Assembly (NCBI GenBank): GCA_002707205.1
Contig: PAMH01000013.1
Coordinates: 1-62,748 of the forward strand
Source: Legionellales bacterium
GTDB lineage: Bacteria > Pseudomonadota > Gammaproteobacteria > UBA1113
Length of the DNA stretch: 62,748 bases
Direction: 5' to 3'
Made by a program: the position numbers and the translations under genes. Below, piece after piece: positions 3,717 to 62,748 of the stretch; the first letter of the stretch is position 1; each line of letters opens with the position of its first letter. The notes beneath the pieces are model-generated. The model made no database searches. It saw nothing but the letters and a program-made list of their open reading frames with translations, and was not told the origin of the DNA.

Positions 3717-3739
3717 TCGTTTCCCTCCGTCTGATATCA

Positions 3740-4765: not shown

Positions 4766-4927
4766 TATTTTTACCTAAAATATGAATTTTCTGTACCCAA
4801 TACACTTAAAAATAATTTGTTATAACTTCGCATTTCGAGGTAGTTTGGGTATATACTTAACAACAACTTATCATATGTCTAACATGATACAAAATTTAAA
4901 CAAGATTGAATAGCTTTAGGTGAATTT

Positions 4928-15419: not shown

Positions 15420-15432
15420 ATGGAGTTAACCT

Positions 15433-15999: not shown

Positions 16000-16002
16000 A
16001 TC

Positions 16003-16806: not shown

Positions 16807-16861
16807 ATCTATCCTTTATTGTTATAATTATTGTTAGATTTATGTATTTATACATAAATGT

Positions 16862-17356: not shown

Positions 17357-17435
17357 TATTATTTTTTTTTAATTATAATAGTTAATGAACAAAATTTTAT
17401 CATCGCTTATAAAAAAGTTAAGGCTTTGTCTAGAA

Positions 17436-24707: not shown

Positions 24708-24749
24708 AAATTTACCTCAATAAAAAGATGCGATACTAATAGCAAGAAG

Positions 24750-35540: not shown

Positions 35541-35923
35541 TATTTTTTTTGAATGTTCCAAACCTATTAAAGACATGTATCCCTTGTTCATAAATATTCT
35601 AATCAATGCTAAAGCTTAGCTCAGCATCACAACTGCTCATCGCTGATAAATATGAGCTATTTTACATCAACTATGCGCTATCTGCATCTAAAACTTAGAT
35701 AATGTCAAATCAAAATTGAAATATTGCTATACCAATAAGCAAATATCTACACATCATCATCGAGTAATAAAAACAGTATGATTAATCAATTACCAGTATA
35801 AATATTTTTCACCCACTTTTTATGACTCACGTAATAACCTTTCTTAATAATGACAATAAAATACGCTTTATCTAAGCTATGTTATAATTTTCTAAAATTT
35901 AAAATGATGCAGGAAATATTATC

Positions 35924-43983: not shown

Positions 43984-45474
43984 TTAACCTATCTTAGGTA
44001 TACGCGCTACCATACGCAAAGAGGTTGTTAACTCCTCAAACTGTAACCATGGTCTCAACCATGCAACAGCATGATATGAACCAGGCTGTCCTGGTATAGC
44101 TTTCACTTCAATTTTTGCTTCTGCGAGTGGATATTTCGCTTTTAAATCTTGATTTGAATCTGCATTAGCATTTACATAATTATTAACCCAACGATTCAAC
44201 CACTTTTCACAATCAGATGCTTCCATAAATGCACCTATTTTATCTCTTGCCATCACTTTTAAATAATGAGCAAATCTCGCACTGGCTAAAATATAAGGCA
44301 TTCTTGCTGAAATTGCTGCATTTGCTGTTGCCTCCGGAATATCATACTTTAACGATTTTTGTACTGTTTGGCCGCCAAAAAAAACCGAGTAATTTGTATT
44401 TTTATAATGACATAATGGTAGAAAACCAAGCTTGCTTAATTCAGCTTCTCGCCGATCAGTAATTGCAATTTCACTCGGACATTGCGAATCAATATCGCCC
44501 TCATCAGTGAAAAAAACATGTAAAGGTAAATTTTGTACTTTTCCACCACCTTCTGCACCACGAATAGCTGTGGTCCAACCATATTTGGCAAATGCTTCTG
44601 TTAAACGAACACCGAACACATAGGCTGCATTCATCCAACAATAATCATGATGTGCCAATTGTGTCGTGGGCTTTCCTTCTTTAATTGAGGTTTCTTCAAA
44701 TTGAAACTCTTCAATAGGTAAAGTTGCTTCACCATAAGGAAGTCTTGCTAATACCCGAGGCATAGTCAAAGTAATAAAACGTGAGTCTTCTGAATCTCTA
44801 AAGCTTTTCCATTTAGCATATTCCACGCTATCAAAAATTTTCTCAAGATCTCTTGGATTTGCTAACTCCGCCCAAGTATCAAAACCCATTAATTTACAAC
44901 TTGCAGCACTTATAAATGGACAAAATGCAGCCGCAGAAACCTCAGAGATTTTACGTAACATTTCGACATCTTCAGGATGATTATCAAAATCATAATCACC
45001 AATCATTGCACCATATGGTTCACCACCTGGCATACCAAACTCGTTTTCATAAATTTTTTTAAACATTTGACTTTGGTCAAACTCAACAGCCTTATCTAAA
45101 TCTTTAAATAATTCTCGCTTCTTGACATTTAGCATCTTAATTTTTAAAGATGCACCTGTTTCTGAATTAGAAACAAGATATTGCAAGCCGCGCCAAGTGC
45201 CTTCAATTTTTTTAAAATCTTCTGTATGTATAATTTTTGCTAACTGATTAGAAATAGCTTGATCAAGCTTATTGATTGCGGTATTAATGGTAGCTACTAA
45301 ACTTTTATTCCATATTATAGTGCCATTTAAAGTATTCGCTGTTAATGCACGTAACAGATCCTCCGCCTGACATCTCTCTGTTTGTTTTGTTGCTAAAATA
45401 GCTTGCTCCAATATACTCTCTGAAGCTTCAATACTATTATTCACATCTATTACTGACTGCTGAATATCAGACAT
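43984..45474 (-). CDS. tssC: T6SS contractile sheath large subunit TssC (VipB family), copy 1
   Basis: The 496-aa product carries hallmark blocks: [66 protein letters not shown] and the C-terminal [17 protein letters not shown]. It lies directly downstream of tssB. Confidence 0.93.
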
Positions 45475-45475
45475 T

Positions 45476-45979
45476 TTACTCTCCCCTGTCTAATTCTAAC
45501 TCTTGCACTAATTTTTGTAACTGTGTCGAATCTTGTAATGTCGCCTCTAAAATTGATTCTAACTTATCTGAACGATCTGACTTTGATAGCAAGTCACGAA
45601 GTTTATCTCTTGTGTCTTTTAGTTCCTTTAAGGCAGGAACTTGCCCTACAATTTTAGCGGGTTCAAAATCTTCCATGGCACAAAATTTAAGTTGTATAGA
45701 CATCTCTGAGCCATCATCTTGTAACGTATTTTCAACACGTAAATTCAGTCCTGCATTTTGCTTTTTCATTACCTCATTAAAGTTATCTCTATCAATTTTA
45801 ATGAATTTTCTTTCCTTCAAGGGTTTTAATACTTCTGTTGGATGCCCTGAAAAATCACCTAGCACACCTACAACAAAAGGTAATTCCTTTTCAACAGTAC
45901 CACCTTCTGTTTCAACCTCATATTTAATATGTACCCTAGGTTTTCTAACCCGTTCTAATTTGTCATTAACACTTGACAT
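45476..45979 (-). CDS. tssB: T6SS contractile sheath small subunit TssB (VipA family)
   Basis: [27 protein letters not shown] and the [11 protein letters not shown] blocks are present. The product is 167 aa. Its stop lies 1 nt from the tssC start, and ATG follows AGGAG. Confidence 0.93.
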
Positions 45980-46067
45980 TTTCTTCTCCTATTGTGATTA
46001 ACAAAATTAAAATACCTTTCAACTTTATTGAGATATGCAGTTATTATGTACTGCGGAAGTTTTAAAT

Positions 46068-47174
46068 TTATTTCATATCTTTTAAGCCTATCAATTTTAA
46101 AAAGTTATTTTTGGCAACATCATCACTGATTAATAATTGCATTAATTCCGGCAACGACATTTGTCCCCAATTAATAATATTATCAATACCATATGAAATG
46201 GGAGAGTGTGGCTCAGTAATACGAAAAAAATTTGCGATTGCAGCTAAATCCTTAAGCGATGATTCTCGACTCATTTTTGAAAGTTTTTGGTGATAAGGTT
46301 GAACTTTGAATTCTACATCCTTTGATTTCTTTTGTGATTCATTTTCTTTAATTACATCAACGTGACTAATTTTTGTATCCACATCCTTTAAGTCATGCAA
46401 AATAAAATTAAGATGATCATTAAATAATGTTAGTGCATTTTTAATATGTGAGGATGGTGGTGCGTTATGATGATAACGCGCAACCAAATAGTCTTGCAGC
46501 TGCTCAAACTTTTCTAAAACAAGCTTAAGCTGCTTTTGTAAAAGATCATAAAAGTTTTTGGGCGTTTCTTTAGCTGCTTTTTTTATAACATTTATATCAA
46601 TAAAACCTGCTTCCAACTTTTGATTAATAATTTTCTGATCTTGTATTTTATTAATCGCTATTGCCTGTTGATACTGCCACATGGCATACGAACCGAGATT
46701 TTCGCTGTTTACGATTAATTGATTTTGAATTGGCTGAATCAGACTACCTTGATTATCAATCCCATTTAAACCAATTAATGCTGCAAATCGCGATTCAAGT
46801 CCATCCTCATCAGGTAATGGATAAATATCATCAGGAAAATTTTTTAGTAAAAAATAAATAAGCTCAAACCCTTTTGCTAAACCATAAAAGCCATCTTGAC
46901 GAAGCCAAGCCTCTGTTAACCAACAAGCAATTTCTAAGTCTTTTGTTTGCTCCTTAATTAAGTAGATTCCTTTAGTTGATACCATTTTCCAATAACTCAT
47001 CGAATCAGCATCAGTTTCGCCACTAAGTTGTTTTCTTTCAATTGTTCTTGCCTTATTGCGAGCATCTTTAACCTCGTAATAATCATCACGATAATAATCA
47101 TTTTTTCTTAAATCAATACCACAAGGGTCTTCTTGACTAATATTTTTCAATAAACTTTTTAGGTTAATTGACAT
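46068..47174 (-). CDS. tssA: T6SS protein TssA (ImpA N-terminal domain, short form)
   Basis: It has an ImpA_N-type N-terminus (ISQEDPCGIDLRKNDYYRDDYYEV...AR). The product is 368 aa. It overlaps the tssM stop by 11 nt and lies upstream of tssB. Confidence 0.8.
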   Translation of the reverse strand: MSINLKSLLKNISQEDPCGIDLRKNDYYRDDYYEVKDARNKARTIERKQLSGETDADSMSYWKMVSTKGIYLIKEQTKDLEIACWLTEAWLRQDGFYGLAKGFELIYFLLKNFPDDIYPLPDEDGLESRFAALIGLNGIDNQGSLIQPIQNQLIVNSENLGSYAMWQYQQAIAINKIQDQKIINQKLEAGFIDINVIKKAAKETPKNFYDLLQKQLKLVLEKFEQLQDYLVARYHHNAPPSSHIKNALTLFNDHLNFILHDLKDVDTKISHVDVIKENESQKKSKDVEFKVQPYHQKLSKMSRESSLKDLAAIANFFRITEPHSPISYGIDNIINWGQMSLPELMQLLISDDVAKNNFLKLIGLKDMK

Positions 47175-50100
47175 GTTTTTCCCTTTTTTTGATAGTTATG
47201 TTGTTAGGTAATAAAAATTTTTTAAACAAAGATAAATTTAAAATTGATAGCTTAGCGATATTAGAGATTTGATAACTACTAGTAACTCCATTTAAATTAA
47301 AGTCATAATAATATAAACCTTGATATTTTGTTTTATTCAAAGTACCTTGAGAAAAAAACTGATAAATAGACCACGGGCCAGAAAATTTCATATGGTAATT
47401 GTCACCAGAAAAAGTATTTAACGTTAAGCTCACAGCATTAGCATTTTCAGGGAGTGGCCAACTAATATTTTTTGTTTGTTGTGGTCCATGACGATAATTT
47501 AAATTGGTCTCACCAATATGCAGGATAGAGTTTGTTGCATCACTTGATAATGTTATAGGTTTAATAGAAAATTCTACCGATAATTGATTACTACCAGATA
47601 AAAAATAGTTTGTATGAATTTTTTCCCATTGCATAAATTGATCAATGGATTCACGTGTTAAATCAATAGTATGACCATCAACATGATAGGGTCGCCAAGG
47701 ATTAGATTTCACATCTATGAATGGCTTAATATACTGACTATAATATTTTGACATTAATCCATCTTCCCCAAAAAACGCTATAAAGTCTTTCAAAGGCACT
47801 TGATTTATGCTATTTGTATCAAATGGATAACTACTTTTTAAGTTTTCCACATAGTAAAGCATAACATCATGCTGCCACACCTCATTCATTTTTTGATGCG
47901 CATTATCCAAAATAACAAACCACACTTGGTCTGCTATTTCTGTTAACCATTGATTAATTGGTGTGGGCGTATTATTAGCCAATTGATATAATAACTGGAG
48001 AGGCGTTTTTTTACCTTGTATCATTTCCAAAATAGCATTAAAACTTGCTTGTTGAGGATCTTTTGATTTCTCTATGGTTAATAGATAATCACGTAATTTA
48101 GAGAATACATTGACTGTTTCCTTTAATGTGTATTTTGTAGATATATTTTCATAATAATTATTGATTAATTTAAATGCTTTTGATAACTGATGGTTATCAT
48201 GATCAATATTGTCAGAGTTACTATATATGACTAATAATAAATTATTCATTGGCGATGAACTGTCCATAAGCATATTTAATTTCTTTATACTTTGACTTAA
48301 TGATATAAAAGGTTTAATAGATATATTAGTTAATGCATTATTCCAAGCTGCAATATAATTATGGTTATATTTTTTTATTATTATTGCTTTAATTTGATGG
48401 TCTGTTTGTACGATATTATTCGGTAAACCAATAATCTGATTGTCATGTACTACTTCTTTTGTAATATCTTGATTAAACTTAGAAAAAATATTTTCAAATC
48501 CTTGCTTAGTATATAAACTTGGAATTACGATACTTTTCACATCAAATGAAAATATTTTTTTAAAATTTTCACCAGCCATAGCACTTAAATCTAAATTAGG
48601 ATAGTTACTTACATTGCTTTTTATTTTTAACAATCCATAAGCTCTATCTGCTGGCATAATTTGCTCTAATTGTTTTCTTGCTTTATTTATAAGCAATTGA
48701 TCAATAGGAAGTTTTGGAATGCGATTCTGTAGTGATATATCTAAATATTTTTCAAGTGATTTTAATAAATTAATTTGATCAATATATTCATTTTTCCACT
48801 GAAATAACATCGGTGCTTTAAGCATGTTTTTTTCCACATGATTATTATCACTGAATACCAGATAGGCTTTTAAATTTGCATAAAGTAAATTTGCATCGAC
48901 AATATTTTGACTTAAATCATTTTTCAACTGTGATGCTATTCTTGGTAAAAATAAGCTTCTTAACGCACGATTTAACGTTTCTTCTAATTTTTTCTCTAAA
49001 TAATAATTTGTAAAAATCATTGTTGTGTAAATAAAATTATTATCTTTAGATAAACGATAGGCTTGATATAACTGATTAATTACTGGAACAATTTTAATTA
49101 ACGCAGCATTATCTGGCGCTAGCTGCGTGTAATCATGCTGATAATAATTAATCCGATTTTCAATTAAATGTATTTTAATTTGTAATATTTGATACCCTTG
49201 ATGCATTGAATAAATTAACAATCCTAAAATTACTGGTTGAGCATAGCGTAACACTTGATATTTTCGCCGTTTATTATTGTTATATTTTTTATTTTCACCA
49301 ACCCATTCAGCTTCTGGATATATAACATCTAAAAAAATATTCTTTACAAAATAATTTTCACTTATTTTTTTTTGAGATTTAAAAATTGGTAATACAAGCT
49401 GATACTTTTTTGCTATCGCTTGAGAAAGATAATCATATGGATTACCTGACTCTTGATTACAGCTGGTAAAGTATAGTCCTCTAAACTGCAACGTATCTAG
49501 CTGATTAATACTTAAAAATAATTCAGATATAAAATTAATAATGGGCTGCTTAATTAACTGTATCTGTTGAGGAAACTGATAAATTAATGCTCTATCCCTA
49601 GCAGTTTCAACTTTATTCAAAGTCCATAAGACACGATTTTTTAAAATATTAGTCAGCTGTGTATATTCTTTATTACAATATCTTATAACATATGATTGAT
49701 CATGACATCGTGGTAAAGGTAAAGTAAATCCCCATACTTGCTGTAAATCTTCTTTATTAAGCTCGCTGAAAAATTCACAAAACCCTGATAATAAATCGCA
49801 TTTATTAAAAATAAGATACAAAGGAACATATGCCCCTGATTGTTTATGCACTATTTTTACATATTGACTAACATTTTGAATAAATTCATTCCGTTCCTTA
49901 TTACTCATCGACATTAAATCATGTATAGTTAGTGTCAAAATCACACCACTAAATATTTTATTTTTGTGCACTTTCTTTAATGATTTTATTAAATTTTCAT
50001 ACAAAGATAATTTTTCACTCTTAATATTGTACTTAGGTTTAATAAAAACTGCTTGTTGTGAAAAATACCATTTATAATCTGAAAAGTTTTTATTCAAATA

Positions 50101-50391
50101 TACAGCTTCATCACAACAACTTTGCGCATTAATATAATTTAATTTTATATTGTTTAAAAAACTTTGTTTTCCTGAATTTTTTGAACCGATTATTAAGTAC
50201 CATGGTAGCTTATAAAAATTTAGCTGGAGATAGTCTTGTTTAATTTTATGATGAACCAGCTTTGTATTTATTGATAATTTCTGGAAAACATCATATGCCA
50301 TTGCCTTTATTTTTGCAAAACCAACAGTTAATTTAATGCCTGTATTTTTAAAAAATATTACTGCTTTTTTTATAAAATCCATTATCATCAC
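47164..50391 (-). CDS. tssM: T6SS membrane complex protein TssM (IcmF family), atypical N-terminus
   Basis: The 1075-aa product has the LPWYLIIGSKNSGKQSFL P-loop region at residue ~62 and an IcmF-like periplasmic region. It has an ATGA overlap with tssL. No hydrophobic hairpin precedes the P-loop. Confidence 0.88.
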   Translation of the reverse strand: MMIMDFIKKAVIFFKNTGIKLTVGFAKIKAMAYDVFQKLSINTKLVHHKIKQDYLQLNFYKLPWYLIIGSKNSGKQSFLNNIKLNYINAQSCCDEAVYLNKNFSDYKWYFSQQAVFIKPKYNIKSEKLSLYENLIKSLKKVHKNKIFSGVILTLTIHDLMSMSNKERNEFIQNVSQYVKIVHKQSGAYVPLYLIFNKCDLLSGFCEFFSELNKEDLQQVWGFTLPLPRCHDQSYVIRYCNKEYTQLTNILKNRVLWTLNKVETARDRALIYQFPQQIQLIKQPIINFISELFLSINQLDTLQFRGLYFTSCNQESGNPYDYLSQAIAKKYQLVLPIFKSQKKISENYFVKNIFLDVIYPEAEWVGENKKYNNNKRRKYQVLRYAQPVILGLLIYSMHQGYQILQIKIHLIENRINYYQHDYTQLAPDNAALIKIVPVINQLYQAYRLSKDNNFIYTTMIFTNYYLEKKLEETLNRALRSLFLPRIASQLKNDLSQNIVDANLLYANLKAYLVFSDNNHVEKNMLKAPMLFQWKNEYIDQINLLKSLEKYLDISLQNRIPKLPIDQLLINKARKQLEQIMPADRAYGLLKIKSNVSNYPNLDLSAMAGENFKKIFSFDVKSIVIPSLYTKQGFENIFSKFNQDITKEVVHDNQIIGLPNNIVQTDHQIKAIIIKKYNHNYIAAWNNALTNISIKPFISLSQSIKKLNMLMDSSSPMNNLLLVIYSNSDNIDHDNHQLSKAFKLINNYYENISTKYTLKETVNVFSKLRDYLLTIEKSKDPQQASFNAILEMIQGKKTPLQLLYQLANNTPTPINQWLTEIADQVWFVILDNAHQKMNEVWQHDVMLYYVENLKSSYPFDTNSINQVPLKDFIAFFGEDGLMSKYYSQYIKPFIDVKSNPWRPYHVDGHTIDLTRESIDQFMQWEKIHTNYFLSGSNQLSVEFSIKPITLSSDATNSILHIGETNLNYRHGPQQTKNISWPLPENANAVSLTLNTFSGDNYHMKFSGPWSIYQFFSQGTLNKTKYQGLYYYDFNLNGVTSSYQISNIAKLSILNLSLFKKFLLPNNITIKKREKHVN

Positions 50392-51224
50392 TTATATCGT
50401 TCTTGCTTATTACTATTAACTAATTTATTGAAATCAGAAACTTGTAGATAAATAGTTACAGGTGAAACATTTGCAATTGTTGATAATGCATTTAATATTG
50501 GTTGTGTACTATTTATTGCACGGAAATTATAGTATCCTAGGCTAATTAAAAATAAAGTTAGCGTAATTATTGTTATCTTTTTTAACTTAATTTTATGACA
50601 TGTTTCTTTATGTGGTTTATGAAATACTTTCCATTGTGGAGATAATTTCTGTGACTGGCAATTACGTACTTGTTTAATGTGATAAAAAATTCTATGCCTT
50701 ATTTCATTTCTAATCATTTTATTTTCATGACCATAAAGTTTTCCCTCAAAGCCTAGACTCATTAGGCAATATCCAAACTCTATAAATTCAATATGATCTC
50801 GAATGTTTTTTAACATATTTTCTAAAATAATATAAAAGCGCTCTCCGCCCCATGTTTCTTTTTGAAAATAACTTAATAATCCTTCTTGTGTCCATATGCT
50901 TTTCTTACCCCATGCAGTACTCAATACAACTTCATCTATTGCTGTACACAAACAATATCTTGCTGCAATGATCATTATTTCAGGATAATCAACAAGAACT
51001 AATTTTTTTTCAAAATTTTTTATTTCATCAATCATTAATGTTTGTAATTGAATGATATTTTTCTGCTCTATAGCATATCTTATCTGTATAATTAGGATAA
51101 ATATTATATCTGCAGCTTCTATGAGTTTATTTTTAACTTTAGTACTATTAGATATATCACGCTTCGCATTCTCCATATACGTAGATACAACTTTTTGATT
51201 ATTGACTAAAGCTTTATTATTCAT
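50388..51224 (-). CDS. tssL: T6SS membrane complex protein TssL (DotU family)
   Basis: DotU blocks are present (AARYCLCTAIDEVVL, QKETWGGERFYIILE, CLMSLGFEGK). It has a single C-terminal TM (ITIITLTLFLISLGYY) and no OmpA/PG-binding extension. Confidence 0.87.
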   Translation of the reverse strand: MNNKALVNNQKVVSTYMENAKRDISNSTKVKNKLIEAADIIFILIIQIRYAIEQKNIIQLQTLMIDEIKNFEKKLVLVDYPEIMIIAARYCLCTAIDEVVLSTAWGKKSIWTQEGLLSYFQKETWGGERFYIILENMLKNIRDHIEFIEFGYCLMSLGFEGKLYGHENKMIRNEIRHRIFYHIKQVRNCQSQKLSPQWKVFHKPHKETCHKIKLKKITIITLTLFLISLGYYNFRAINSTQPILNALSTIANVSPVTIYLQVSDFNKLVNSNKQERYK

Positions 51225-52560
51225 ATGTATTTCCTTTAATCGCCCAAATTGATAATTTTAATCCTGGAATCTTTTTTCCTACATGTACTGCAAGCGCACC
51301 TGTTTTTTCAAGATTTTTCCAATGTGAACTTGCTGTATCAATTAAAAAATATGCATGGTTTGCTTGAAATGGTATTTGCTTTGGTACTAGATTTATAGGA
51401 CTAATATTCGCGCCAGGTAATGCTTTATGTATTAATGTTTCAATATGCGATGTAGATGCAATCTTTAATTGATTTGGTAACGATGCTTTCAGTATATCAA
51501 TTGATATATCTGCATACGCAACCAAGACAAACTGACATTCATTGATAATTTTTTTATCATTTATATGAGCTATCCATGTACCATATGTTTTAGCAATTAA
51601 TTTTATATTGATTGCATTTTGTTCCAGCACCAATGTCAATGAAGTTCTAAGCTCATGCATTAATTCTTTAAACGTTTCATTTAAATTATCATGCCTATAT
51701 TGTGTTTTTTTTATGGGTCTTCTTTTCTTACTGATATAAGTTGAAATCTCAGCCATTAATGAATTCAACACTTGATAAAGATATTCTGGATGAACCACAC
51801 GCTTCTGGCTAATATAATATAATTCTTGTTGATATTTATTCATCATTTGTAATAAAAGAAAATCAACCATTTCTGCTGTTCCAGCATGATTTTCATCTGT
51901 TAAACGGTTAGCAATTAACTCTGCTCTATTTTCCACTAATCCATATATTTCTAAAATATAAGATGATAATCGCTTACTTGTTTGACAGTTTATCCATATT
52001 GTTTCAAAAGCATTATCTAGTAGGATTTTACGATTAATACCCACCTCAATAATTTTTGCTATCGGCAAAATACTATATGCTGACAAGTTTTCATATTCAG
52101 GCATAATTGAACATGCTAATTTAGCCATTTGAATCTCAACTTCATTGTGACTATCTGCAATTGCATCTTCAATTTTTGATTGAAATATTATATTTCTATG
52201 AATCTGTTTTGTTTCATTTGTACCAACTTCAGCTATTTCTTTTTCTCGTAATGGAATTGTTAGATAAATGATTTTATTATGTATATTCTCTGGAATATCC
52301 AGCGGAACGGGTAATTGATCTACTGTAGATAAATCAAAATATGTACCATCAGGAAATATTCCACGCGCATATTTTAATGCAATTTTTCCTATTGATAATA
52401 AATTTTCATCTATCGCAAAAGATTGTAATCCCCAGAAGTTTTCATTATTTACCGTTATTTTTTGTTGTATTATATTCTCAAAATACCTTTCTTGTTGTTG
52501 GAAATGTTGTGGATGAAGAAACATACCTTCATACCAAACAATACGATTGCTAAATAACAT
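51217..52560 (-). CDS. tssK: T6SS baseplate protein TssK
   Basis: It has the canonical N-terminus RIVWYEGMFLHPQHFQQQERYFE. The product is 447 aa and the gene overlaps the tssL start by 8 nt. Confidence 0.9.
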   Translation of the reverse strand: MLFSNRIVWYEGMFLHPQHFQQQERYFENIIQQKITVNNENFWGLQSFAIDENLLSIGKIALKYARGIFPDGTYFDLSTVDQLPVPLDIPENIHNKIIYLTIPLREKEIAEVGTNETKQIHRNIIFQSKIEDAIADSHNEVEIQMAKLACSIMPEYENLSAYSILPIAKIIEVGINRKILLDNAFETIWINCQTSKRLSSYILEIYGLVENRAELIANRLTDENHAGTAEMVDFLLLQMMNKYQQELYYISQKRVVHPEYLYQVLNSLMAEISTYISKKRRPIKKTQYRHDNLNETFKELMHELRTSLTLVLEQNAINIKLIAKTYGTWIAHINDKKIINECQFVLVAYADISIDILKASLPNQLKIASTSHIETLIHKALPGANISPINLVPKQIPFQANHAYFLIDTASSHWKNLEKTGALAVHVGKKIPGLKLSIWAIKGNTYE

Positions 52561-52570
52561 AACTTACCCT

Positions 52571-53056
52571 TTAATTTGTCTTAACACTCAGGGTGTGAGA
52601 TTCTAATAATATTTTTAAATTGATATTTTTATTTGCTGTTGTGTCACATTTAATGAGGTGACGCCAATTGCCTATCCTTTGGTTTTGATACCCTGCAATA
52701 ATGCCTATATAATGTGTATCCTCTGATATTGCTTCAGATATGTGCATTGTGGTTTTGGGTCTGATTTCTATGATATTTTTATCAATTAAATCATCACCCA
52801 ATACAGCAGAGCTATTATTTTCTAATGCAATATAACTTGCCTGATTAAATTTATCTGGTTTGCTTAATTGATAAATTGTTAGTGCGACGGGTGATGCTTG
52901 TCCATTAATATCGGGATTTAAATAGGTTACTGATTGTACATCCATTTCAGCCGTAGGTATGTTAGCGCTAAACCATGCACATCCACTTAAAGATGAAACA
53001 ACGGTAATACTTATTATTAAAAGTAAACTTATCTTTTTCATTTTTTCTCTTTTCAT
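52571..53056 (-). CDS. tssJ: T6SS outer-membrane lipoprotein TssJ
   Basis: It has a lipobox (SSLSGC) and family blocks LNPDINGQASPVALTIYQL and YIGIIAGYQN....WR. An alternative start exists at 53041. Confidence 0.82.
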   Translation of the reverse strand: MKREKMKKISLLLIISITVVSSLSGCAWFSANIPTAEMDVQSVTYLNPDINGQASPVALTIYQLSKPDKFNQASYIALENNSSAVLGDDLIDKNIIEIRPKTTMHISEAISEDTHYIGIIAGYQNQRIGNWRHLIKCDTTANKNINLKILLESHTLSVKTN

Positions 53057-53136
53057 CTTAGTGTTTTATCTCTATCCAATCATGTGTTCATACATCAATA
53101 GTATTAATATTTTTTATATGCTAATTAGAAGTGAAT

Positions 53137-54030: not shown

Positions 54031-54487
54031 TTGGTTATATGGGTATTAAACTCATTAAACAATGAAAAGCATAGTTTGTCAAATTTTTTGAGTATTAATT
54101 ACAATTATAGAGTTTATTACTTATAGGTTGTGCATTGTAAATAATCTGACAGTTGTGGCAACAATTTATTTAAGCCGCTTTTAAAAATTTAAAGACATCA
54201 TATATTCTAGGGTTGAATGAAACCATTTAACATGACAAGAAATTGCAATATATCCTTTAATCTCAATTGGTTAAACATAAGTAATACCACTAAAATAAAC
54301 TTGATTTGGTTTATTAGTAACTTGACTAGAATTCAACTACTTAATTACTAACTATAGCGCTGACGATAATCAAATTTCGAATGATAAATTTTAATTTACT
54401 TATCATAGGCTAATCAGTGAAACATAGCGGTACTAAATTTGAAGTGTCCTAAGAACTGAACTTATACAAGCTTTTTGAACAACCAGT

Positions 54488-55135
54488 TTAGTTAATAGAA
54501 TTATTAAATTTAGTGATAACTTTGTTAGTTGTAACATTAACCAAAACATCAAGGCTTGCAAATAGATCCATTGCTCCTTGTGCTTTACTGATGTGGTTAT
54601 CCGCATAGAAGTTATCGGTTAACTCTGACGTATATCGCAAAAATGCATTAAAATGTAATTTCGTCTCCTCTTCGTATTTTTTCAATGCCTCACAAAAAGT
54701 ATTTGAACTATCAGCAATATACGTAGCCAAATATAATGAATTAATTATCCCAAGGATAACGCCTAACCCGGCTGTAGGTGCCATGGCATGAGCTGAGTCA
54801 CCTAATAAAGCAATCAACCCATCTGTTATTTTTTGAGGTGATAACTGACGTAATGTTCTAGATTTTATAATGTTTTCTTTGGGCGTGCTTAAAATAGCTT
54901 GTTTTATTTTTTCTGGCAGACATGGCATATTTTCAAATAATTCATTAAATTTTATGTTCGGTTCATAATCAAAATCTTGGCTATCTAATCTATAGGCAGT
55001 AAAAATATAATAATTATAGCCATTTTCTGTTTTTTGATTTGGATATATTAAAAACCTAGTATTTTTTCCCGAAGATTTGCTGTTTACTTTTTTCAAACAT
55101 CGGTATCCCTCATACAATATTTTGACTTTAATCAA
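54488..55135 (-). pseudogene. Truncated/frameshifted FAD-dependent monooxygenase remnant
   Basis: The C-terminal motif LLGDSAHAMAPTAGLGVILGI (GD..H...P..G.G) is retained. The N-terminal GxGxxG FAD-binding fold is absent and the start is TTG. An out-of-frame upstream peptide (IADSIFGEQAVVKFD, stop at ~55140) suggests a frameshift. Confidence 0.6.
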
Positions 55136-55557
55136 ATTTAACTACGGCTTGTTCACCAAAGATACTATCGGCAATATATTTTACTTACTTTCATAAACTA
55201 GCTAAAAATTCTTATGGCTCTTTAAACTCATAATATGGGTAATTGAGATAGTTGTAAAGCGCATTCAATAATAATTGTACCGCTTTAAATATTATCTACA
55301 AGACTAAACCCTCAACTTTTAAATGCGTAAAATAGACATTTTAATTCCAGCATTTTAAATAGATAGCAATTGCATGCTTAAGATGAATATTATTGGTTTT
55401 TCTATATTTCACCGAGAAAACCTCGATATCATTCAAGCATCAATAAACGTATAACTGTTCATACAGCCATTTAATACCGCTCGTTAAAAAAACATTTGGT
55501 ATCTGGAGCACTGCAACTCATGGAAATTACAACATTCAGCTTTAAAGTCATATTCAA

Positions 55558-58140
55558 CTAGATAGTTACTAATATTTTACAGGCTTGCATATCATAATCA
55601 ACTAGAAGATTTTTAATTCTTTTTCTTTGCAGTATAGACGACATAAATTTTTTGCTTATTGCTGGCAACAATTGTTGTTGTATCGTATTATCAATCAATC
55701 GTGCGCCATACTGATGTGAACAACAAACATTCCCTAAATAAGAAACTAAACCATCTGTAAACTCAGGTGTAAGCTGATATTGTTTATAAATAATTTCAGT
55801 TAATTTTTGTAATTTTAACTGAATAATCCTTTTTAATACTGATGTTGATAAAGTTAAATAAGGAATAGAAATGAAACGACCCAAAAATGCGGGTTTAAAT
55901 ATTTTTAACAACTCGTCTTCAATATATATTGTCAATGCTTGCATATCAATGTCAGCTTGAGTTGCACAAAAATCTTCAATTTGTTCACCACAGGAGTTCG
56001 CTGTCATTAGAATAATAGTATTTGTAAAGTCTATATTTCGTCCTTGTCCATCTTGTAGTATTCCTTTATCAAAAACCTGATAAAAAATATCTTGCATACT
56101 TGGATGTGCTTTATCAATTTCATCGAGTAAAATTAAACTGTAAGGATTTTGTTTCACTGCATCAGTTAAAATACCGCCTTCACCATAACCAATATATCCC
56201 GGCGGCGCACCTGCAAGCATTGAAACTTTATGGGCTTCTTTATACTCAGACATATTAATAGTGATTAGATTTTCTTTTGAACCAAAAATGCTTTCTGCTA
56301 AAACTAAGGCGGTTTCTGTTTTGCCAACACCACTTGGACCTAATAATAAAAACACACCCATTGGTTTAGTCGTGTCAGTTAATTTTAAACTTGATGTTAA
56401 CATATGTTCAGACAAAATTTTAATTGCATATGGTTGGCCAATGATCTTCGTTGACAATGCCTTTTCTAAGCTAAGTAATTGGTTTGCTTGCTCTTTTAAA
56501 ATATGTCCTATGGGAATACCTGTCCAATCAGCAATAACTTCTGATATGATTTTTTCATTAACAAAAGCTTGTAAAAGTGGTCTGTCTTTCTGTATGGTTT
56601 TCAATTGCTTTTCATAATATATAAATGATTTTTTTATTTTATTAAGTGTTAATTTTGATAAATTTTCATTCGCTAAACTACTACGTAAGCTGATTATTTT
56701 TTCGATAATTTTTTTTTCATCATTCCATTGTTTAAATAATACTTTATTTTCTCTTTCAATTTTATAGATTAATTGCTGATTAGTGCCAATGTTTTTATGA
56801 GATATTCCTTGCTTTTTTTCTAAAATTAATCGCTGAAGCGCTTGCTTTAAAAGCTCAATTTTTTTCTCGTTTTTTGTAATATTAATTGGAGTTTCCTTAA
56901 GCCTACTTGCAACTCTGGCGCAAGCAGTATCTAGAACGCTAATACCTTTATCTGGCAGTTTTTTACTTGAAATATATCTCTGTGAAAGTAATACAGCTTT
57001 TTTGATAGCATTATCCAAAATAAATACGCCATGATGTTTTTCAAGGCTCTCAACTAAAGATTGCAACATGCTTATTGCTGTTTCTGTATCCGGCTCATCA
57101 ACCTTAACTAATTGAAATCTTCTTGTTAATGCGGCATCTTTTTCAAAATACTGCTGGTATTCATTCCACGTTGTTGCTGCTATCACACTTAAATCACCAC
57201 GTGCTAGTGCAGGCTTCAATAAATTAGCTGCATCATTTTGTCCGGCTTGTCCACCAGCACCAATTAATGCATGGGCTTCATCAAAAAATAAAATTATGGG
57301 TTTATCTGATATTTTCACTTCAAAAAGTAGTTGTTTTAACCGTTTTTCAAAAACACCTTTAACACTTGCACCAGCTTGTAAAGCACCCATATCCACAGCG
57401 TAAATAATCGTACCTTTCAATATATCTGGAATGTCATTTTTCTCTATTTTTAGTGCAAGTCCTTCAACAATAGCCGTTTTACCAACACCAGGATCTCCTG
57501 TTAAAATAACATTATTTTGTCTTCGCCTAGAGAGGATATCAATGGATTGTCTTATTTCATCTTCACGTCCAATCACAGCATCTATTTTTTTATCTTGCGC
57601 TTGCTGATTCAAATTAATCGCATATTTTTTAAGTGCGTTATTTTTATCTACTCTTCTATTTACCGTATCTATTTCTACATCATGCCCAAGGTTACCAATA
57701 GTCGCTTTTACAGTATTTGATGACACTTTTAAAAACTCATCGGATATACAAGCAGCAATTTGTGATAAAATGGGATCACATATTAAAGCTATCAGAATCA
57801 TTCCAGAATCAATATATTGAGACTGAAACTCTAATGATGCAACTAACCAAGCTGCATTAATTAACTCAATCAATCTTACAGCTATTGCTGGTGTTTGCTC
57901 ATTACCTGAATTCAGACCCGATAAGTTTTTATGTAAATCAGTAGTTATTTTTTCAATATTGCAATTATATATGGTCAATGCTTTTCTTATTATCGCTGAT
58001 TTGTTTTTTAATAAATGCAGCAACCAATGCTCAATTTCAATATTATAATGTGACTTGGCTACACAAAGACTTGCCGCCTCATTTAAAGTTTGGCGAGATA
58101 AATCATCCAATTTTTCAATTAAATTTTTTATGTTTTCCAT
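55558..58140 (-). CDS. clpV: T6SS AAA+ ATPase ClpV (TssH)
   Basis: It has a Clp N-domain start ([20 protein letters not shown]) and two AAA+ modules. Their Walker A motifs are [15 protein letters not shown] and [15 protein letters not shown], and their Walker B motifs are ILFFDEAH and [11 protein letters not shown]. The product is 860 aa. Confidence 0.93.
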
Positions 58141-58179
58141 ATATATTCCTTTATAGATTTATAATTTAATATCATTGTT

Positions 58180-59148
58180 TTAAAAAATAGCGTTTCCAAA
58201 CTCAATACATGTTTGGGTTTTTTCATTGTCAATAATATTTAACCAACTCGTCCAACCCAATTGCATGTTTTTTTCATTTGTTAATTTTTTAATTGGTATT
58301 GTTTTCTTATTTATTTTAAAAATTAATTTGAAACAAAATTGGTAACCCATATAATCAAAAATTACTTTTTTAATTTCTCTCATCATATGTTTACTAGGCA
58401 GCAGATCTAAAAATTTCTCATAATCAATATCACCAATAATTACTGCAAAACCATTCTGAGAGTACCAAGCTTTACTGCCTATAATAGCATTCATGCCTAG
58501 TGTGTTATTATGACTATTAACTGTAATCTTTGTTAAATTATCCTTCTCAATCACAAACCAATGACCTTGTAACTGCATGATTTTAATAGGCAAAGAAAAA
58601 TAATCTGAAAGCAATATGCTTAATCCGTAAGCCGTTCTATTTTGATTTGAAAATAATGCTGCATAGAATAAATGTCTATTTTTTTCTTGTGCATTTTTAT
58701 AAATTAATGAAATGCCTGTTAATGATAGAACTAACTCTATGATTTCAGATTTTTTTTGGTGCTCTAATCCAATATAAAATCGTGCTTTTTCCCATGCCTG
58801 ATAAAATAAACTGATAAGCCTATGATGAAATATATTTAAAAATGCATATAAAGTATAATCTTTTGCATTAATTCTTTCCATGACTAACGAGGATAAATGT
58901 TCAGGTAATATACCAGACTGACCAATCAGCCCCATAAAGGTAACCATGACATCTACTTGATTTTTTTTTATTTTAAGATCAATCACCTCATTTATTGCAT
59001 AAGATAAACTTGGACTAGTTACAAATTTAACGGGTGTAATATCTCGTTGATTTAATAATTTAACTAATTGAAAAAAGTCAAATGACATGATATTTTCTTG
59101 AATAAATTGTAAATCCTCATCTGTTTTCATTATAAACTTTTCTTCCAC
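58180..59148 (-). CDS. tssG: T6SS baseplate protein TssG
   Basis: It has the N-terminal FDFFQLVKLLNQ block. The likely true start is ATG at 59130, which shares one nucleotide with the tssF stop (TAATG coupling). Confidence 0.88.
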   Translation of the reverse strand: MEEKFIMKTDEDLQFIQENIMSFDFFQLVKLLNQRDITPVKFVTSPSLSYAINEVIDLKIKKNQVDVMVTFMGLIGQSGILPEHLSSLVMERINAKDYTLYAFLNIFHHRLISLFYQAWEKARFYIGLEHQKKSEIIELVLSLTGISLIYKNAQEKNRHLFYAALFSNQNRTAYGLSILLSDYFSLPIKIMQLQGHWFVIEKDNLTKITVNSHNNTLGMNAIIGSKAWYSQNGFAVIIGDIDYEKFLDLLPSKHMMREIKKVIFDYMGYQFCFKLIFKINKKTIPIKKLTNEKNMQLGWTSWLNIIDNEKTQTCIEFGNAIF

Positions 59149-60938
59149 TGATTAATCTCGACACCACTTTCATCTATGAAAGTTAAATCAACGAACGTAT
59201 TTAAGTCACAAGTTTTATTCAAATATTCATATAAAACATAACCAAATAATAATTCATTATTTTCTGGAAAATATTTTTTATTTATCGTTATTCTTAACTT
59301 TATCCCATGACTAAAATCTGTCGCCATATATCCATGTATAGGTTTAATAATTTTTTTTAAATCTACTGTTTGAATTCCATGCATAATCAAATCACTATAG
59401 TGCTTGTCATTTAAGCAACTCATTGATAAAACATTTTGTATTTGTTGCTTTGTGTTTTCATTATCTTCTAAAAATTTTTGTCTTAATGCTATTAAGGCAA
59501 TTATATCTATCTGTAATGAGGTGTTATGCTTCTGATAAACAGGTGCTGTAACTTCTGAAAGACTAACTGCTGCTAAATTAGTACTTGTTTCAGCATCTTT
59601 AAATGCAAAAATTTTCCCGGAATCATCCTGTGTCAGTTGTATGTTTTCAAACTTATTAGCGCAAAGCATTTCTGCAACAATAGAGGTTTTATTATTGAGT
59701 GTTGGCTCAATATTTTTAAAGCTGACATTAATGAAACTCTCGTAACCTGAAATATGATATCTTCCAATTTCTTCGCTTGATTTTTTATAATGATACCAAT
59801 GTAGATATTTAGCATTAATATCATCTGCATACTTATATCCAAAAAATGGTCGGCAAACCATATTTTTATACTCAGATATGACATTTACATTATTAATGTG
59901 ATAAATCTCACACTCTGCCATATCAAAATCATTGTCTGGAATAACGGGATAATCATTAATTTTCTGATCTATGACAACCGGCACTGAATTAATTTCGAAT
60001 AAATTAATAACAGGGGAGCATCCTAGTAAAAATGTTTTTTTATTTATTATCGATACTAAATCTGCTTGATAGTTATTAAAGTAAATATTTATGTTTATAG
60101 AGCAACCCATATCATCAGTTACATATTTTGATAAATGCTTCAGTCTAAAATATAAATATTTTTTCGGATATAAAAAAAATTCCATCAGTAAATTTTGTGC
60201 TATTTCTGCATTTTTTTGTGATGGGAATAAATTCTCTTCATCGTCAAAACCCAAAAAAGAAACCAACGATTCAGGATAAATAGTTACTGTCTCATCACTT
60301 TCTGATGTAATCGTAATATAGCTAATGTTTTTAAATAAAATTTGTTGTATTAAATAAGCATTTTCAGTTGAAGTATTAATATAAAAATCCAAATTATTTA
60401 TATTCATTACCTTTATGTTATGCGCCGGATTTATTGCTTGTAATCTAATACTTAATGCCGACTTTGTTTTCTTATTTTTATATGCTTGTTCACACTTAAA
60501 ATTACATCCGAAATATATATCAGTAATTTTAATTGGATATATGGTGAGAGGATAACATGTTCTAAACACACAACTTTTACCATCTGTTGTTTTTGAACTG
60601 AGTTCTGTATTTTTAGGAAGATTATAGGTTTCATCGTGGTTATTAACATTTTTAATTTGAACTGTACTTAATGAGGGAATAATTGATAAATAATTTGGAT
60701 ATAATAAATTTAAGATTGATTGTGATGCGCTTTGCATTTGTCTATCAATTTTATAATTTATTCTTGCAGTTAAAAATGCAAAAGACTCAATTAAAGTACC
60801 AACAAGTGGGTCTTCTGTATTACCTTCGCCCATACATAATCGATTTCCTATTTTTGGATAAGCTTTTGCAAAGGCATCACCTTCATTGCGTAAATAGTTT
60901 AATTCACTTTGGTAATATTTAAGTAAGCTTTTCTTCAT
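59130..60938 (-). CDS. tssF: T6SS baseplate protein TssF
   Basis: It has the canonical N-terminus LLKYYQSELNYLRNEGDAFAKAYPKIGNRL and LIESFAFLTARI. The product is 602 aa. Confidence 0.92.
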   Translation of the reverse strand: MKKSLLKYYQSELNYLRNEGDAFAKAYPKIGNRLCMGEGNTEDPLVGTLIESFAFLTARINYKIDRQMQSASQSILNLLYPNYLSIIPSLSTVQIKNVNNHDETYNLPKNTELSSKTTDGKSCVFRTCYPLTIYPIKITDIYFGCNFKCEQAYKNKKTKSALSIRLQAINPAHNIKVMNINNLDFYINTSTENAYLIQQILFKNISYITITSESDETVTIYPESLVSFLGFDDEENLFPSQKNAEIAQNLLMEFFLYPKKYLYFRLKHLSKYVTDDMGCSININIYFNNYQADLVSIINKKTFLLGCSPVINLFEINSVPVVIDQKINDYPVIPDNDFDMAECEIYHINNVNVISEYKNMVCRPFFGYKYADDINAKYLHWYHYKKSSEEIGRYHISGYESFINVSFKNIEPTLNNKTSIVAEMLCANKFENIQLTQDDSGKIFAFKDAETSTNLAAVSLSEVTAPVYQKHNTSLQIDIIALIALRQKFLEDNENTKQQIQNVLSMSCLNDKHYSDLIMHGIQTVDLKKIIKPIHGYMATDFSHGIKLRITINKKYFPENNELLFGYVLYEYLNKTCDLNTFVDLTFIDESGVEINQWKKSL

Positions 60939-60941
60939 TTT

Positions 60942-61415
60942 TCACCCATCAATTGTAAATTTTTGTCTAAAATAATCCCATGAAGAATCAAATGTTGCTG
61001 CTGTATTTATCATGCTACTATTTAATTTTGCATATATTTTTAATTTTATTGTTCTATTTACTGCAATATCACTTGTTAATATTTCTATATACACATCGCT
61101 TAATCTTTTTTCTGAATGCAAAATATTTTCTTTTATATGCTGACACAGCATGGTTTGAGAAGACTTATGTCCAAAATGGCTATGTGAAAAATCTATCATG
61201 CCATAATTTAAGATCGAATTTTTTAATGCAATTAATTCTTCGGGCAGCTGTATGCCTAAAGATCTTGTATTTAAAATATTTTCTATATTTAGTTTAATAT
61301 CTGCTATCAATTGCCTTTGTTCAATGACATTCATTACTTTACTTTCTCTATGATTATATGGCTGCTCATCTATTAATCTTTGCAAGAGTGGCGTATTAAA
61401 CTTCATGTACTCCAA
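60942..61415 (-). CDS. tssE: T6SS baseplate protein TssE (gp25-like)
   Basis: TPLLQRLIDEQP and the NIENILNTR / ILNYGMIDFS blocks are typical of the GPW/gp25 family. The product is 157 aa and its stop lies 3 nt before the tssF start. Confidence 0.85.
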   Translation of the reverse strand: MEYMKFNTPLLQRLIDEQPYNHRESKVMNVIEQRQLIADIKLNIENILNTRSLGIQLPEELIALKNSILNYGMIDFSHSHFGHKSSQTMLCQHIKENILHSEKRLSDVYIEILTSDIAVNRTIKLKIYAKLNSSMINTAATFDSSWDYFRQKFTIDG

Positions 61416-61427
61416 TATTTATCCTTC

Positions 61428-62748
61428 CTAATTTAATTTCACTTGAGTTATCAATCTAAATTGTAATTCTATTTCATCAATTTGATATTGTGGTTTTAAA
61501 TGCATAATACAATGATATTTCCCTGGCATACTCTTATTTTCTGTCACTTTAACTTTGGCTTCTCTTAAAGGATATTTTGTTCTGACATCCCGCGTTAAGG
61601 TAGTATTTTGTGCACGATATTGATGTAACCAACTATCTAGAAATAATTCACATTCCCTTGCACTGGAAAAGCCACCAATACGATCACGAAGTATCATTTT
61701 AATATAATGTGCAAATCGTGATACACACAATACATAATGTAATAAGGATGAGAGACTTGCGTTTACTGTCCCTGTTTTTGTTGTAAATTTTATTGGTTGT
61801 TGTAATGTTTGCATGTTATAGAAAATTGCTTTTTCTAAGTATCGATTATCTTTTAATACAATAAATCCTGCTTCACTTAATATTTTTTCCTGTGTATCTG
61901 TTATGGCATATTCTGTTGCATTTTTTGCAATTAAGTTATCCTCATCTGTCGAATAATAATCGCGATAAATATCAACGACACCCCCTTTACTATCCTTTTG
62001 ATGAATTCCTCGCATATCACTAAACCATCCTGTCTCTCGATATGATGTTATTACTGTACAAGCAAAAGCATAGCTTGCATTGCCCCAAAGATAATCGTCA
62101 TGATGTTCTGCCGATTCAGTAAAAAAGCGATTATGCGCAGATGAAGTAATTGCCTGATATAGTGGCCGCATTCTAATTCGTGGTAACACTAAACCTAAAT
62201 AATGTGAATCCTCTTCTATACGTATTTGCTTCCACCGTTCATATTCTTTTTGTTGTAATAAATCTTTTACTTGAAAGGGTATCTGTATCTCTGAAAAACT
62301 ATTAATACCAAAAAAATTAGGTGCAATACCTACCACTATCGGACAAAATGCACTGCTAGCAATTTTTGCTAATTCTCTAAGCAAATAAATACAATCTGGA
62401 ATATCTGGTTGTATATTATGATTAAAATAATAGTCGGCAATAATCAAACCAAATGGTTGCCCACCGGGTTGATCAAACTCCTGTTCATAAATTTTTTTAA
62501 ATAATGCCGACTGATCAAAATCAACTGCATGTTCAATATTCTTTGCTAATACTTTGGCACTAATATTTAAAATTTTGATTACAGTTGATGTATCATCTTC
62601 GCGAGCATTTAGTAGTAACAATAAACCACGCCATGAAGCCTCTAGTTTTTGCAATAAGCTATTATGAAGAATAATATTTATTTGTTTGTTAATGACGGCA
62701 TCAATATGCTGGATTAATTTCAATATAATGTTATCTGAACTTATTAAC
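61428..62748 (-). CDS. Second, divergent TssC-family sheath protein (partial, runs off the window edge)
   Basis: TssC blocks are present: LQKLEASWRGLLLLL, FDQSALFKKIYEQEFDQPGGQPFG, SAFCPIVVG, SRFAHYIKMILRDRIG and KYHCIMHLKPQYQIDEI. The ORF-track start at 62723 is a TTG, and the frame stays open (LISSDNII...) up to position 62748. Confidence 0.85.
   Translation of the reverse strand, partial: LISSDNIILKLIQHIDAVINKQINIILHNSLLQKLEASWRGLLLLLNAREDDTSTVIKILNISAKVLAKNIEHAVDFDQSALFKKIYEQEFDQPGGQPFGLIIADYYFNHNIQPDIPDCIYLLRELAKIASSAFCPIVVGIAPNFFGINSFSEIQIPFQVKDLLQQKEYERWKQIRIEEDSHYLGLVLPRIRMRPLYQAITSSAHNRFFTESAEHHDDYLWGNASYAFACTVITSYRETGWFSDMRGIHQKDSKGGVVDIYRDYYSTDEDNLIAKNATEYAITDTQEKILSEAGFIVLKDNRYLEKAIFYNMQTLQQPIKFTTKTGTVNASLSSLLHYVLCVSRFAHYIKMILRDRIGGFSSARECELFLDSWLHQYRAQNTTLTRDVRTKYPLREAKVKVTENKSMPGKYHCIMHLKPQYQIDEIELQFRLITQVKLN

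Follow-up and report, generated by a model that had tools for sequence, protein, structure and literature searches.

The DNA analyzed here (the window: positions 1 to 62,748 of contig PAMH01000013.1, assembly GCA_002707205.1) carries, on the minus strand at positions 43984 to 62748, the main structural cluster of a canonical proteobacterial type VI secretion system (T6SS, type T6SS-i). The cluster is a fresh example of a well-known machine and not a new type of system. It is chromosomal: the window is gammaproteobacterial chromosome, with housekeeping genes that include corA, ftsYEX, rsmD, rpiA, dprA, topA, tsaC, radA, rplI, tex, lptD, rpoH and ubiJ/ubiB, and beyond the outermost T6SS gene follow an OmpA-like barrel protein, ComM, UbiK, P-II and a MacB-type ATP-binding cassette (ABC) system. 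With a rough probability of 0.62, we read the locus as an Imp-derived T6SS cluster that has been streamlined and rearranged and is still used, its missing parts being encoded elsewhere, in a marine gammaproteobacterium near the Legionellales.

Gene identities, gene integrity, architecture and chromosomal linkage can all be observed directly. The cluster comprises 14 consecutive minus-strand open reading frames (ORFs), namely 12 Tss genes (TssC occurs twice), one flavoenzyme remnant and one orphan. In the direction of transcription, the Tss genes run TssC paralog, TssE, TssF, TssG and ClpV/TssH, then TssJ, TssK, TssL, TssM, TssA, TssB and TssC. All 12 exceed curated Pfam and NCBIfam cut-offs, with full-length matches except at the TssM N terminus. 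A first-pass annotation, made by a model without database searches, had described thirteen consecutive T6SS ORFs and quoted hallmarks for eleven Tss genes; the unbroken minus-strand run and every quoted motif are there at the genes named, and the count becomes 14 ORFs with 12 Tss genes. The profile search of the Tss families that it suggested as a check recovers all of them over curated cut-offs. Its term "near-complete" holds insofar as 11 of the 13 T6SS core families are present. The two absent families are Hcp and VgrG, sought in about 81 kb (the window plus flanks of 8 kb and 10 kb taken from contigs with identical proteins); PAAR, not counted among the 13 core Tss families, is absent from the same 81 kb. 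The features of the cluster are listed here in the direction of transcription.

61428 to 62748, minus strand: TssC paralog, a predicted ImpD/TssC40-type second sheath large subunit (Pfam VipB and VipB_2; TIGR03355, 417 bits against a cut-off of 271.5, match from profile position 52)
60942 to 61415, minus strand: TssE, gp25-like baseplate subunit (PF04965, GPW_gp25; TIGR03357, 74 bits against 53.2)
59130 to 60938, minus strand: TssF, baseplate subunit (PF05947, full-length; TIGR03359, 399 bits)
58180 to 59148, minus strand: TssG, baseplate subunit (PF06996; TIGR03347, 225 bits)
55558 to 58140, minus strand: ClpV/TssH, sheath-recycling AAA+ ATPase (ClpB-like double AAA; TIGR03345, 1035 bits against 885)
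55136 to 55557, no strand: AT-rich non-coding spacer of 422 nucleotides (three-frame translation riddled with stops, no recognizable coding remnant)
54488 to 55135, minus strand: ORF that is probably a flavin monooxygenase C-terminal remnant (PF01494, FAD_binding_3, profile positions 268 to 345 of 349 only; GDSAH motif)
54031 to 54487, no strand: AT-rich non-coding spacer of 457 nucleotides (from gap measurement and translation), presumed to hold the promoter of the second cluster half
53137 to 54030, minus strand: orphan protein of 297 amino acids, upstream of tssJ (no Pfam, NCBIfam or PDB match)
52571 to 53056, minus strand: TssJ, outer-membrane lipoprotein (PF12790, T6SS-SciN; TIGR03352; lipobox LSGC at residue 23)
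51217 to 52560, minus strand: TssK, baseplate subunit (PF05936, T6SS_VasE, full-length; TIGR03353, 384 bits)
50388 to 51224, minus strand: TssL, short DotU type (PF09850; TIGR03349, 157 bits against 90; C-terminal membrane anchor, no peptidoglycan-binding domain)
47164 to 50391, minus strand: TssM, membrane-complex subunit of 1075 amino acids (Pfam IcmF-related_N, IcmF-related and IcmF_C; TIGR03348, 679 bits against 388)
46068 to 47174, minus strand: TssA, short form with ImpA_N only (PF06812; TIGR03363, 237 bits against 161)
45476 to 45979, minus strand: TssB, sheath small subunit (PF05591, T6SS_VipA; TIGR03358)
43984 to 45474, minus strand: TssC main copy, ImpC/TssC41-type sheath large subunit (PF05943 and PF18945; TIGR03355, 676 bits)

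These assignments cover each functional module of a T6SS-i. The sheath is represented by TssB and both TssC copies, the baseplate by TssE, TssF, TssG and TssK, and the membrane complex by TssJ, TssL and TssM (with the peculiarities of TssM described below); all of these exceed their NCBIfam cut-offs, as do TssA and ClpV, and ClpV has kept its two Walker A and two Walker B motifs (ILFFDE, LILLDE) intact. The TssC paralog is truncated by the window end. Its ATG lies 23 nucleotides beyond position 62748, and the full protein has 447 amino acids, the start being read in another contig of the same population (L087). For TssE, gene callers choose a start different from the ORF start used here. A mis-identified Dot/Icm type IVB system, with IcmF and IcmH in place of TssM and TssL, can be rejected, as TssM scores 294 bits against the cut-off of 1000 of the IcmF_IVB model and 679 bits with TIGR03348. 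There are no dot/icm neighbors, and the TssL gene sits between tssK and tssM. TssL also exceeds the cut-off of the type IVB IcmH/DotU_IVB equivalog model (121 bits against 50), a cross-match that could misguide automatic annotation of Legionellales-like genomes.

The genes are tightly packed. Junctions range from -19 to +88 nucleotides, save for the gaps of 422 and 457 nucleotides on either side of the flavoenzyme remnant, which confirms the dense, overlapping arrangement noted by the first-pass annotation; the long intact ORFs that it had singled out (1075 and 860 amino acids, to which one of 602 can be added) are likewise open, in a region of 29.9% GC. About 17 kb of uninterrupted ORFs at 30% GC, with ATPase motifs unbroken and junctions coupled, argue that selection maintains the T6SS genes. 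The 12 Tss genes lie in DNA of 27 to 36% GC. The GC content of 43984 to 62748 is 29.9% versus 35.4% for the remaining window, and the third-codon-position values (GC3) are close, at 0.17 to 0.24 for the T6SS genes and 0.20 to 0.30 for the housekeeping genes.

The two TssC copies place the cluster within a known architecture. TssC2, the paralog, is 34% identical to TssC1, the main copy. In a neighbor-joining tree, the main TssC lies inside a tight TssC clade, and TssC2 groups with the second copies of gammaproteobacterial loci. We considered whether TssC2 might be a novel truncated sheath gene and rejected this, given its placement in the tree and the Agrobacterium precedent: it corresponds to the known ImpD/TssC40-type paralog. 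A. tumefaciens secretes Hcp only when it has both TssC41 and TssC40, which are non-redundant, and mutual stabilization occurs only between TssC41 and TssB (PMC3702570). By its sequence, TssC2 would be the second, non-redundant type of TssC homolog that marks Imp-type systems. Because the tree places it with other second copies and because Agrobacterium has the same Imp architecture, the TssC duplication is, on sequence grounds, an inherited and known feature.

The gene order departs from that of most related systems. We mapped the window proteins onto 80 loci of GTDB representative genomes with TssC matches, and the recurrent order in related loci is TssJ-K-L-M ... TssA-TssB-TssC-TssC' ... TssE-F-G-ClpV, where TssC' denotes the second copy. 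In Photobacterium jeanii (L014), TssM and TssA are separated by TagF and a PP2C phosphatase, and TssC' and TssE by ImpE/TagJ. A gap of about 900 nucleotides after TssC' in related loci was considered as a possible hcp gene and rejected, since in the single locus checked, L014, it holds ImpE/TagJ. The window does not follow the Imp-type order TssA-TssB-TssC-TssC'-TagJ-TssE-TssF-TssG: TssC' opens the cluster, TssC closes it, and the gap between TssC' and TssE is 12 nucleotides. The cluster would thus descend from an Imp architecture with two TssC homologs, in which a TssC'-E-F-G-ClpV module may have moved upstream of J-K-L-M-A-B-C, with a decayed flavoenzyme gene in between.

The Imp clusters of A. 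tumefaciens (atu4330-4352) and R. leguminosarum (ImpA-N) share with the window two TssC proteins, of which the ImpD/TssC40-like copy lacks the N-terminal part, a short ImpA_N-only TssA, and the core TssA, B, C, E, F, G, K, L, M and ClpV. The Agrobacterium Imp system is presumably SecReT6 subtype i5. The window has TssJ, whereas Agrobacterium does not. Relative to these two Imp clusters, the window lacks TagJ/ImpE, a recognizable Fha/ImpI, PppA, PpkA, TagF and an adjacent hcp-vgrG operon, its TssM lacks transmembrane helices TM1 and TM2, and its order is circularly permuted, with C'-E-F-G-ClpV before J-K-L-M-A-B-C. Two-TssC clusters also occur in Photobacterium, Vibrio (V. harveyi chromosome 2, V. 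owensii and V. penaeicida), Shewanella, and metagenome-assembled genomes (MAGs) of Cellvibrionaceae and Chromatiales, with TssC 63 to 67% identical to that of the window. These loci have the order TssJ-K-L-M ... TssA-B-C-C'-...-E-F-G-ClpV, and it is with their second copies that TssC2 clusters. The Cellvibrionaceae MAG (L029) resembles the window in having no TagJ-sized gap between TssC' and TssE. In contrast, P. jeanii has TagF, the PP2C phosphatase, TagJ, the unpermuted order and the TssM hairpin.

More generally, the main TssC is 63 to 70% identical to GTDB-representative TssC of Xanthobacter, Planctomycetes, Elioraea and other Acetobacteraceae, Photobacterium, Vibrio and Shewanella, and a protein search found marine and metagenomic relatives at 74 to 83%. 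Four close loci, with TssC 74 to 82% identical to that of the window, were compared: L095 (GCA_030644425.1), L097, L099 and L100. The cluster mate of L095 at 90% identity bears the label "Gammaproteobacteria bacterium". Like the window, all four have the module orphan-TssJ-K-L-M-A-B-C, with the same orphan family upstream of tssJ in L095, L097 and L100, and no TssC' after TssC. They differ from it at both ends. Wherever the close loci extend beyond tssC (three of three), hcp and/or vgrG follow directly, and the window has ubiB instead, convergent and starting 157 nucleotides past the main tssC with neither hcp nor vgrG between. E-F-G-ClpV lies immediately upstream of the orphan in the window but not in L095, L097 and L100 (the contig of L099 ends there). 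In addition, TssK, TssL and TssM of the window are far more diverged than those of the close loci.

TssM is the most unusual component. In L095, L097, L100 and L014, TssM has two strongly hydrophobic helices at about residues 17 to 63 and a PWY motif at residues 127 to 133. Hydropathy and alignment indicate that the window TssM lacks this N-terminal TM1-TM2 hairpin: only 62 residues precede the PWY motif, and the TIGR03348 match begins at profile position 105. The third helix region is kept (AQPVILGLLIYSM). The ORF cannot be extended: no earlier start codon is available between it and the preceding in-frame stop, and the ORF already overlaps the tssL stop. In L099, the closest relative, TssM is likewise truncated at the N terminus (3405 to 6467). 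Removal of a hairpin keeps the topology, and TssM therefore need not be inactive; we know of no test of a TssM variant without it. The first-pass annotation had credited TssM with a P-loop, which does not stand as such, as the Walker A is a degenerate GSKNSGKQ in which the conserved Ser/Thr of GK[ST] is replaced.

The tube, spike and regulatory genes were sought throughout the 81 kb by Pfam pre-annotation and tblastn. The tblastn queries were Hcp of L095 or L099, VgrG of L095 or L100, and TagJ and TagF of Photobacterium, and the best E value was 0.15. For Hcp (TssD), no gene matches PF05638, and tblastn likewise gave no match (best E = 0.15). For VgrG, there is no tblastn match, and there is no Phage_GPD or PAAR among the scanned ORFs and pre-annotated genes, which do not include every small ORF of the window. 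Fha/TagH, PpkA, PppA and TagF are absent from the T6SS cluster, with no recognizable Fha or PppA in the full search space, and the window contains no effector genes. The only Hanks kinase of the window lies 21 kb from the cluster, and its best NCBIfam model is LegK1. Satellite hcp and vgrG loci are common in other bacteria. V. cholerae, for example, has its hcp1 and hcp2 genes away from the main cluster (table of PMC3702570). By analogy with such arrangements, the missing tube and spike genes are probably encoded elsewhere in the genome and the T6SS is probably still used.

Two further ORFs in the cluster are not T6SS genes of a known family. The ORF at 54488 to 55135 was considered as a T6SS gene and rejected, as its match is confined to the final ~80 positions of FAD_binding_3; its scores with the HpxO and UbiH-family NCBIfam models are far under the cut-offs. 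The N-terminal Rossmann half of a flavin monooxygenase was not found in the 422 nucleotides upstream, which hold only stop-riddled sequence. Because only the C-terminal part of the profile is matched and nothing recognizable lies upstream, the ORF is probably a pseudogene, left over from a class-A FAD monooxygenase. It sits exactly at the joint of the two T6SS halves and looks trapped by the rearrangement. The 297-amino-acid orphan occupies the slot upstream of tssJ where related systems have Fha/TagH. It is a distant homolog of the genes upstream of tssJ in L095, L097 and L100 (BLASTP E = 1e-8 to 5e-6) and by these matches is a divergent member of a small lineage-specific family. A search of 1.8 billion representatives gave three homologs. 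Profile searches of Pfam, NCBIfam and PDB gave no family and no FHA match. A single-sequence AlphaFold2 model has a predicted local distance difference test (pLDDT) value of 31.7, too low for a fold search. Residues 72 to 122 are weakly beta-rich only, which is insufficient to call the protein FHA-like.

How such a system would assemble and fire, and what it would act on, can be inferred from the well-studied families to which its proteins belong. TssJ, TssL and TssM would form an envelope-spanning complex, and TssE, TssF, TssG and TssK a baseplate on which TssA would prime assembly. TssB, TssC and the TssC40-like paralog would build the contractile sheath, and ClpV would take the contracted sheath apart. 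Hcp, VgrG, PAAR and effectors would be supplied from other genome sites. Relative to related systems, the cluster appears to have lost accessory regulators (TagJ, TagF, PppA and a recognizable Fha/PpkA) and the first two TssM membrane helices. The host would be a globally distributed, AT-rich, uncultured marine gammaproteobacterium, with Legionellales as its nearest relatives that have a name. As for the target, we give an even chance to a eukaryotic host or grazer, consider competing bacteria possible though doubtful, and think it improbable that the system no longer functions at all.

Several observations weigh against continued use. Neither hcp, vgrG and PAAR nor TagJ and TagF were found in the 81 kb, and hcp and/or vgrG stand directly after tssC in the three closest loci that reach that far. 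In TssM, the TM1-TM2 hairpin is missing and the Walker A is degenerate. The cluster is interrupted by a pseudogene remnant and by non-coding sequence of about 0.9 kb. The window lineage has also diverged faster than its relatives, with TssK and TssM 44 to 45% and 35 to 38% identical to theirs, against 63 to 70% and 52 to 55% among the relatives themselves. In a scan for promoters and terminators, promoter-like sites were no more numerous than in shuffled controls, a result that is uninformative in AT-rich DNA. With the tube and spike genes missing from the 81 kb and TssM truncated, the functional T6SS of which the first-pass annotation spoke is not established. Together with the loss of every accessory regulator, these features could mark a relic: a system that, deprived of tube and spike genes and of part of TssM, has stopped firing and is decaying in a reducing genome. 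However, all 12 genes are open (with ORFs of 1075, 860 and 602 amino acids) at 27 to 36% GC and give full-length profile matches over the cut-offs, the catalytic motifs of ClpV are intact, and translationally coupled junctions are kept. Absence of the tube and spike genes from the main cluster is no oddity in view of satellite loci such as those of V. cholerae, and L099 has a similarly truncated TssM but an hcp gene nearby. On balance, we consider a relic unlikely.

An artefact of assembly or binning, or a very recent foreign island, is by far the least probable account. It would fit the lower GC content of the T6SS region and the flanks that are not syntenic in the LptD relatives. However, 16 contigs of other assemblies are 99.98 to 100% identical to the window, including both junctions between T6SS and housekeeping genes (ubiB-tssC and tssC'-ompA-like), and the junctions recur in independent assemblies made from different Tara samples. 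Because identical junctions recur in 16 contigs and the T6SS genes match the host in GC3, we reject misassembly and recent transfer. The TssC relatives at 63 to 70% identity come from genomes of 39 to 63% GC, so that the composition of the T6SS, matching that of the host in GC3, can be regarded as fully ameliorated. We saw neither an integrase nor a tRNA or repeat boundary, and scanning the window for tRNA genes and Rfam families gave no match. These contigs (L001 to L006, L087 to L094, L104 and L105, mostly from Tara Oceans) differ from the window by at most 2 single-nucleotide polymorphisms per 21 kb, which points to a strikingly clonal, widespread population.

The identity of the host bears on how the cluster should be viewed. 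We used two lineage markers, LptD and RadA. LptD is 59% and 52% identical to proteins of two MAGs labeled "Legionellales bacterium" and 41% identical to that of Aquicella lusitana; among the top 120 matches, the other named ones are labeled just "Gammaproteobacteria bacterium", no other order is named, and no Legionella protein appears. RadA is a poor discriminator, with 72% identity to a "Legionellales bacterium" MAG versus 68 to 71% to other named gammaproteobacteria. The genomic context of LptD relatives (71% and 52% identical) is uninformative on vertical inheritance of the T6SS, as only an APH-NTP_transferase-LptD block is shared and there is no T6SS within 10 kb. From these comparisons, a Legionellales-like, possibly host-associated organism is a plausible host. 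The Legionellales-type bacterium suggested by the first-pass annotation thus agrees with the best named LptD and RadA matches, with the reservations that these are best named matches only and that RadA discriminates weakly.

The host may instead be another deep-branching, AT-rich marine gammaproteobacterium outside the Legionellales, possibly free-living, in which a T6SS would be taxonomically unremarkable. We regard this as doubtful, although there are several points in its favor. The RadA values hardly separate the Legionellales match from the others, which include Pleionea and Kangiellaceae, the "Legionellales bacterium" names are submitters' MAG labels, and the nearest T6SS relatives are labeled "Gammaproteobacteria bacterium" only. 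One member of the clonal population comes from a Tara mesopelagic 0.45-0.8 µm fraction, i.e., small free cells, and there are no Dot/Icm genes in the 81 kb. However, the faster-evolving LptD gives solely Legionellales names among its best named matches. A LegK1-like kinase, a two-lobed hydrophobic protein and several family-less orphans in the window also speak for a host near the Legionellales, as does a GDA1/CD39 NTPDase in the relative with 71% LptD identity.

Within the Legionellales, T6SS occur sporadically, and their function is unstudied. Clusters have been described for three species, L. cherrii, L. dumoffii Tex-KL and L. gormanii (PMC5348487), and for restricted Legionellaceae clades (bioRxiv 10.1101/2024.10.21.619444); the Legionellales symbiont "Candidatus Centrionella anaeramoebae" is reported to have a partial system (bioRxiv 10.64898/2026.04.11.717937). 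A large study of Legionellales evolution (PMC8896642) does not mention T6SS. The first-pass annotation was thus fair in calling T6SS rare or poorly described in this order, yet it overstated the novelty, since their presence had already been reported in the first three of these studies. The setting is similar, a sporadic T6SS in a lineage defined by Dot/Icm; the likeness is one of description, and none of these systems is among the best TssC matches. The window organism represents a distant marine lineage, as its LptD shares no more than 41% identity with that of Aquicella.

If the system is active, T6SS use would extend to an abundant, globally distributed open-ocean lineage that is apparently related to the intracellular Legionellales. 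Such a naturally minimized cluster, with no TagJ, TagF, PppA or recognizable Fha, a TssM devoid of the first two membrane helices, and unlinked tube and spike genes, could show which parts are dispensable. If it is a relic, it could instead show the stepwise loss of a large machine under genome streamlining. In either case, present understanding of the T6SS mechanism is unchanged. A bolder possibility, which we consider improbable, is that a marine, host-associated bacterium of Legionellales-like type keeps, under selection, a minimal T6SS (12 structural genes, no regulators, a single-helix TssM and a lineage-specific orphan replacing Fha) for use on eukaryotic cells, in entry, phagosome escape or defense against grazers, alongside or instead of Dot/Icm. 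If that were true, it would be a second independent lineage of T6SS-reliant intracellular gammaproteobacteria after Francisella, as well as a natural experiment in which the TM1-TM2 hairpin of TssM is dispensable and one membrane helix does in place of three.

The rest of the window holds several other genes of interest. The Hanks kinase, Inc-like protein and coiled-coil orphans noted by the first-pass annotation are all present, with the qualification that the LegK1 match of the kinase is far under the cut-off. This stand-alone, eukaryotic-type Ser/Thr kinase (464 amino acids, 21775 to 23169) scores 50.7 bits against a LegK1 cut-off of 550 and is a possible secreted effector; LegK1 itself is a Dot/Icm effector of Legionella. 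The 395-amino-acid protein at 26465 to 27652 has two hydrophobic lobes with a charged, Lys-rich coiled region between them, an Inc-like layout, and belongs to no Pfam or NCBIfam family. The same is true of three adjacent minus-strand ORFs between tsaC and radA (16351 to 17987; 151, 164 and 183 amino acids), which are charged and coiled-coil-like. In the relative with 71% LptD identity (L103), the GDA1/CD39 NTPDase is encoded at 14857 to 16110, with an Exo_endo_phos protein nearby; GDA1/CD39 NTPDases are a eukaryote-like enzyme family also found in Legionella. LptD (32772 to 35606) has 944 amino acids, with the first Pfam match from residue 156 and thus an apparent long N-terminal extension; its homologs have 842 to 987 amino acids. 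A lipoprotein at 19562 to 20020 combines a Ser/Thr-rich linker with a C-terminal domain that matches the "17 kDa outer membrane surface antigen" families (PF16998 and PF16587). The locally highest GC content (39 to 41%) is found in two adjacent genes at 23265 to 26384, which encode a thiamine-diphosphate enzyme (544 amino acids) and an aldehyde dehydrogenase (480 amino acids).

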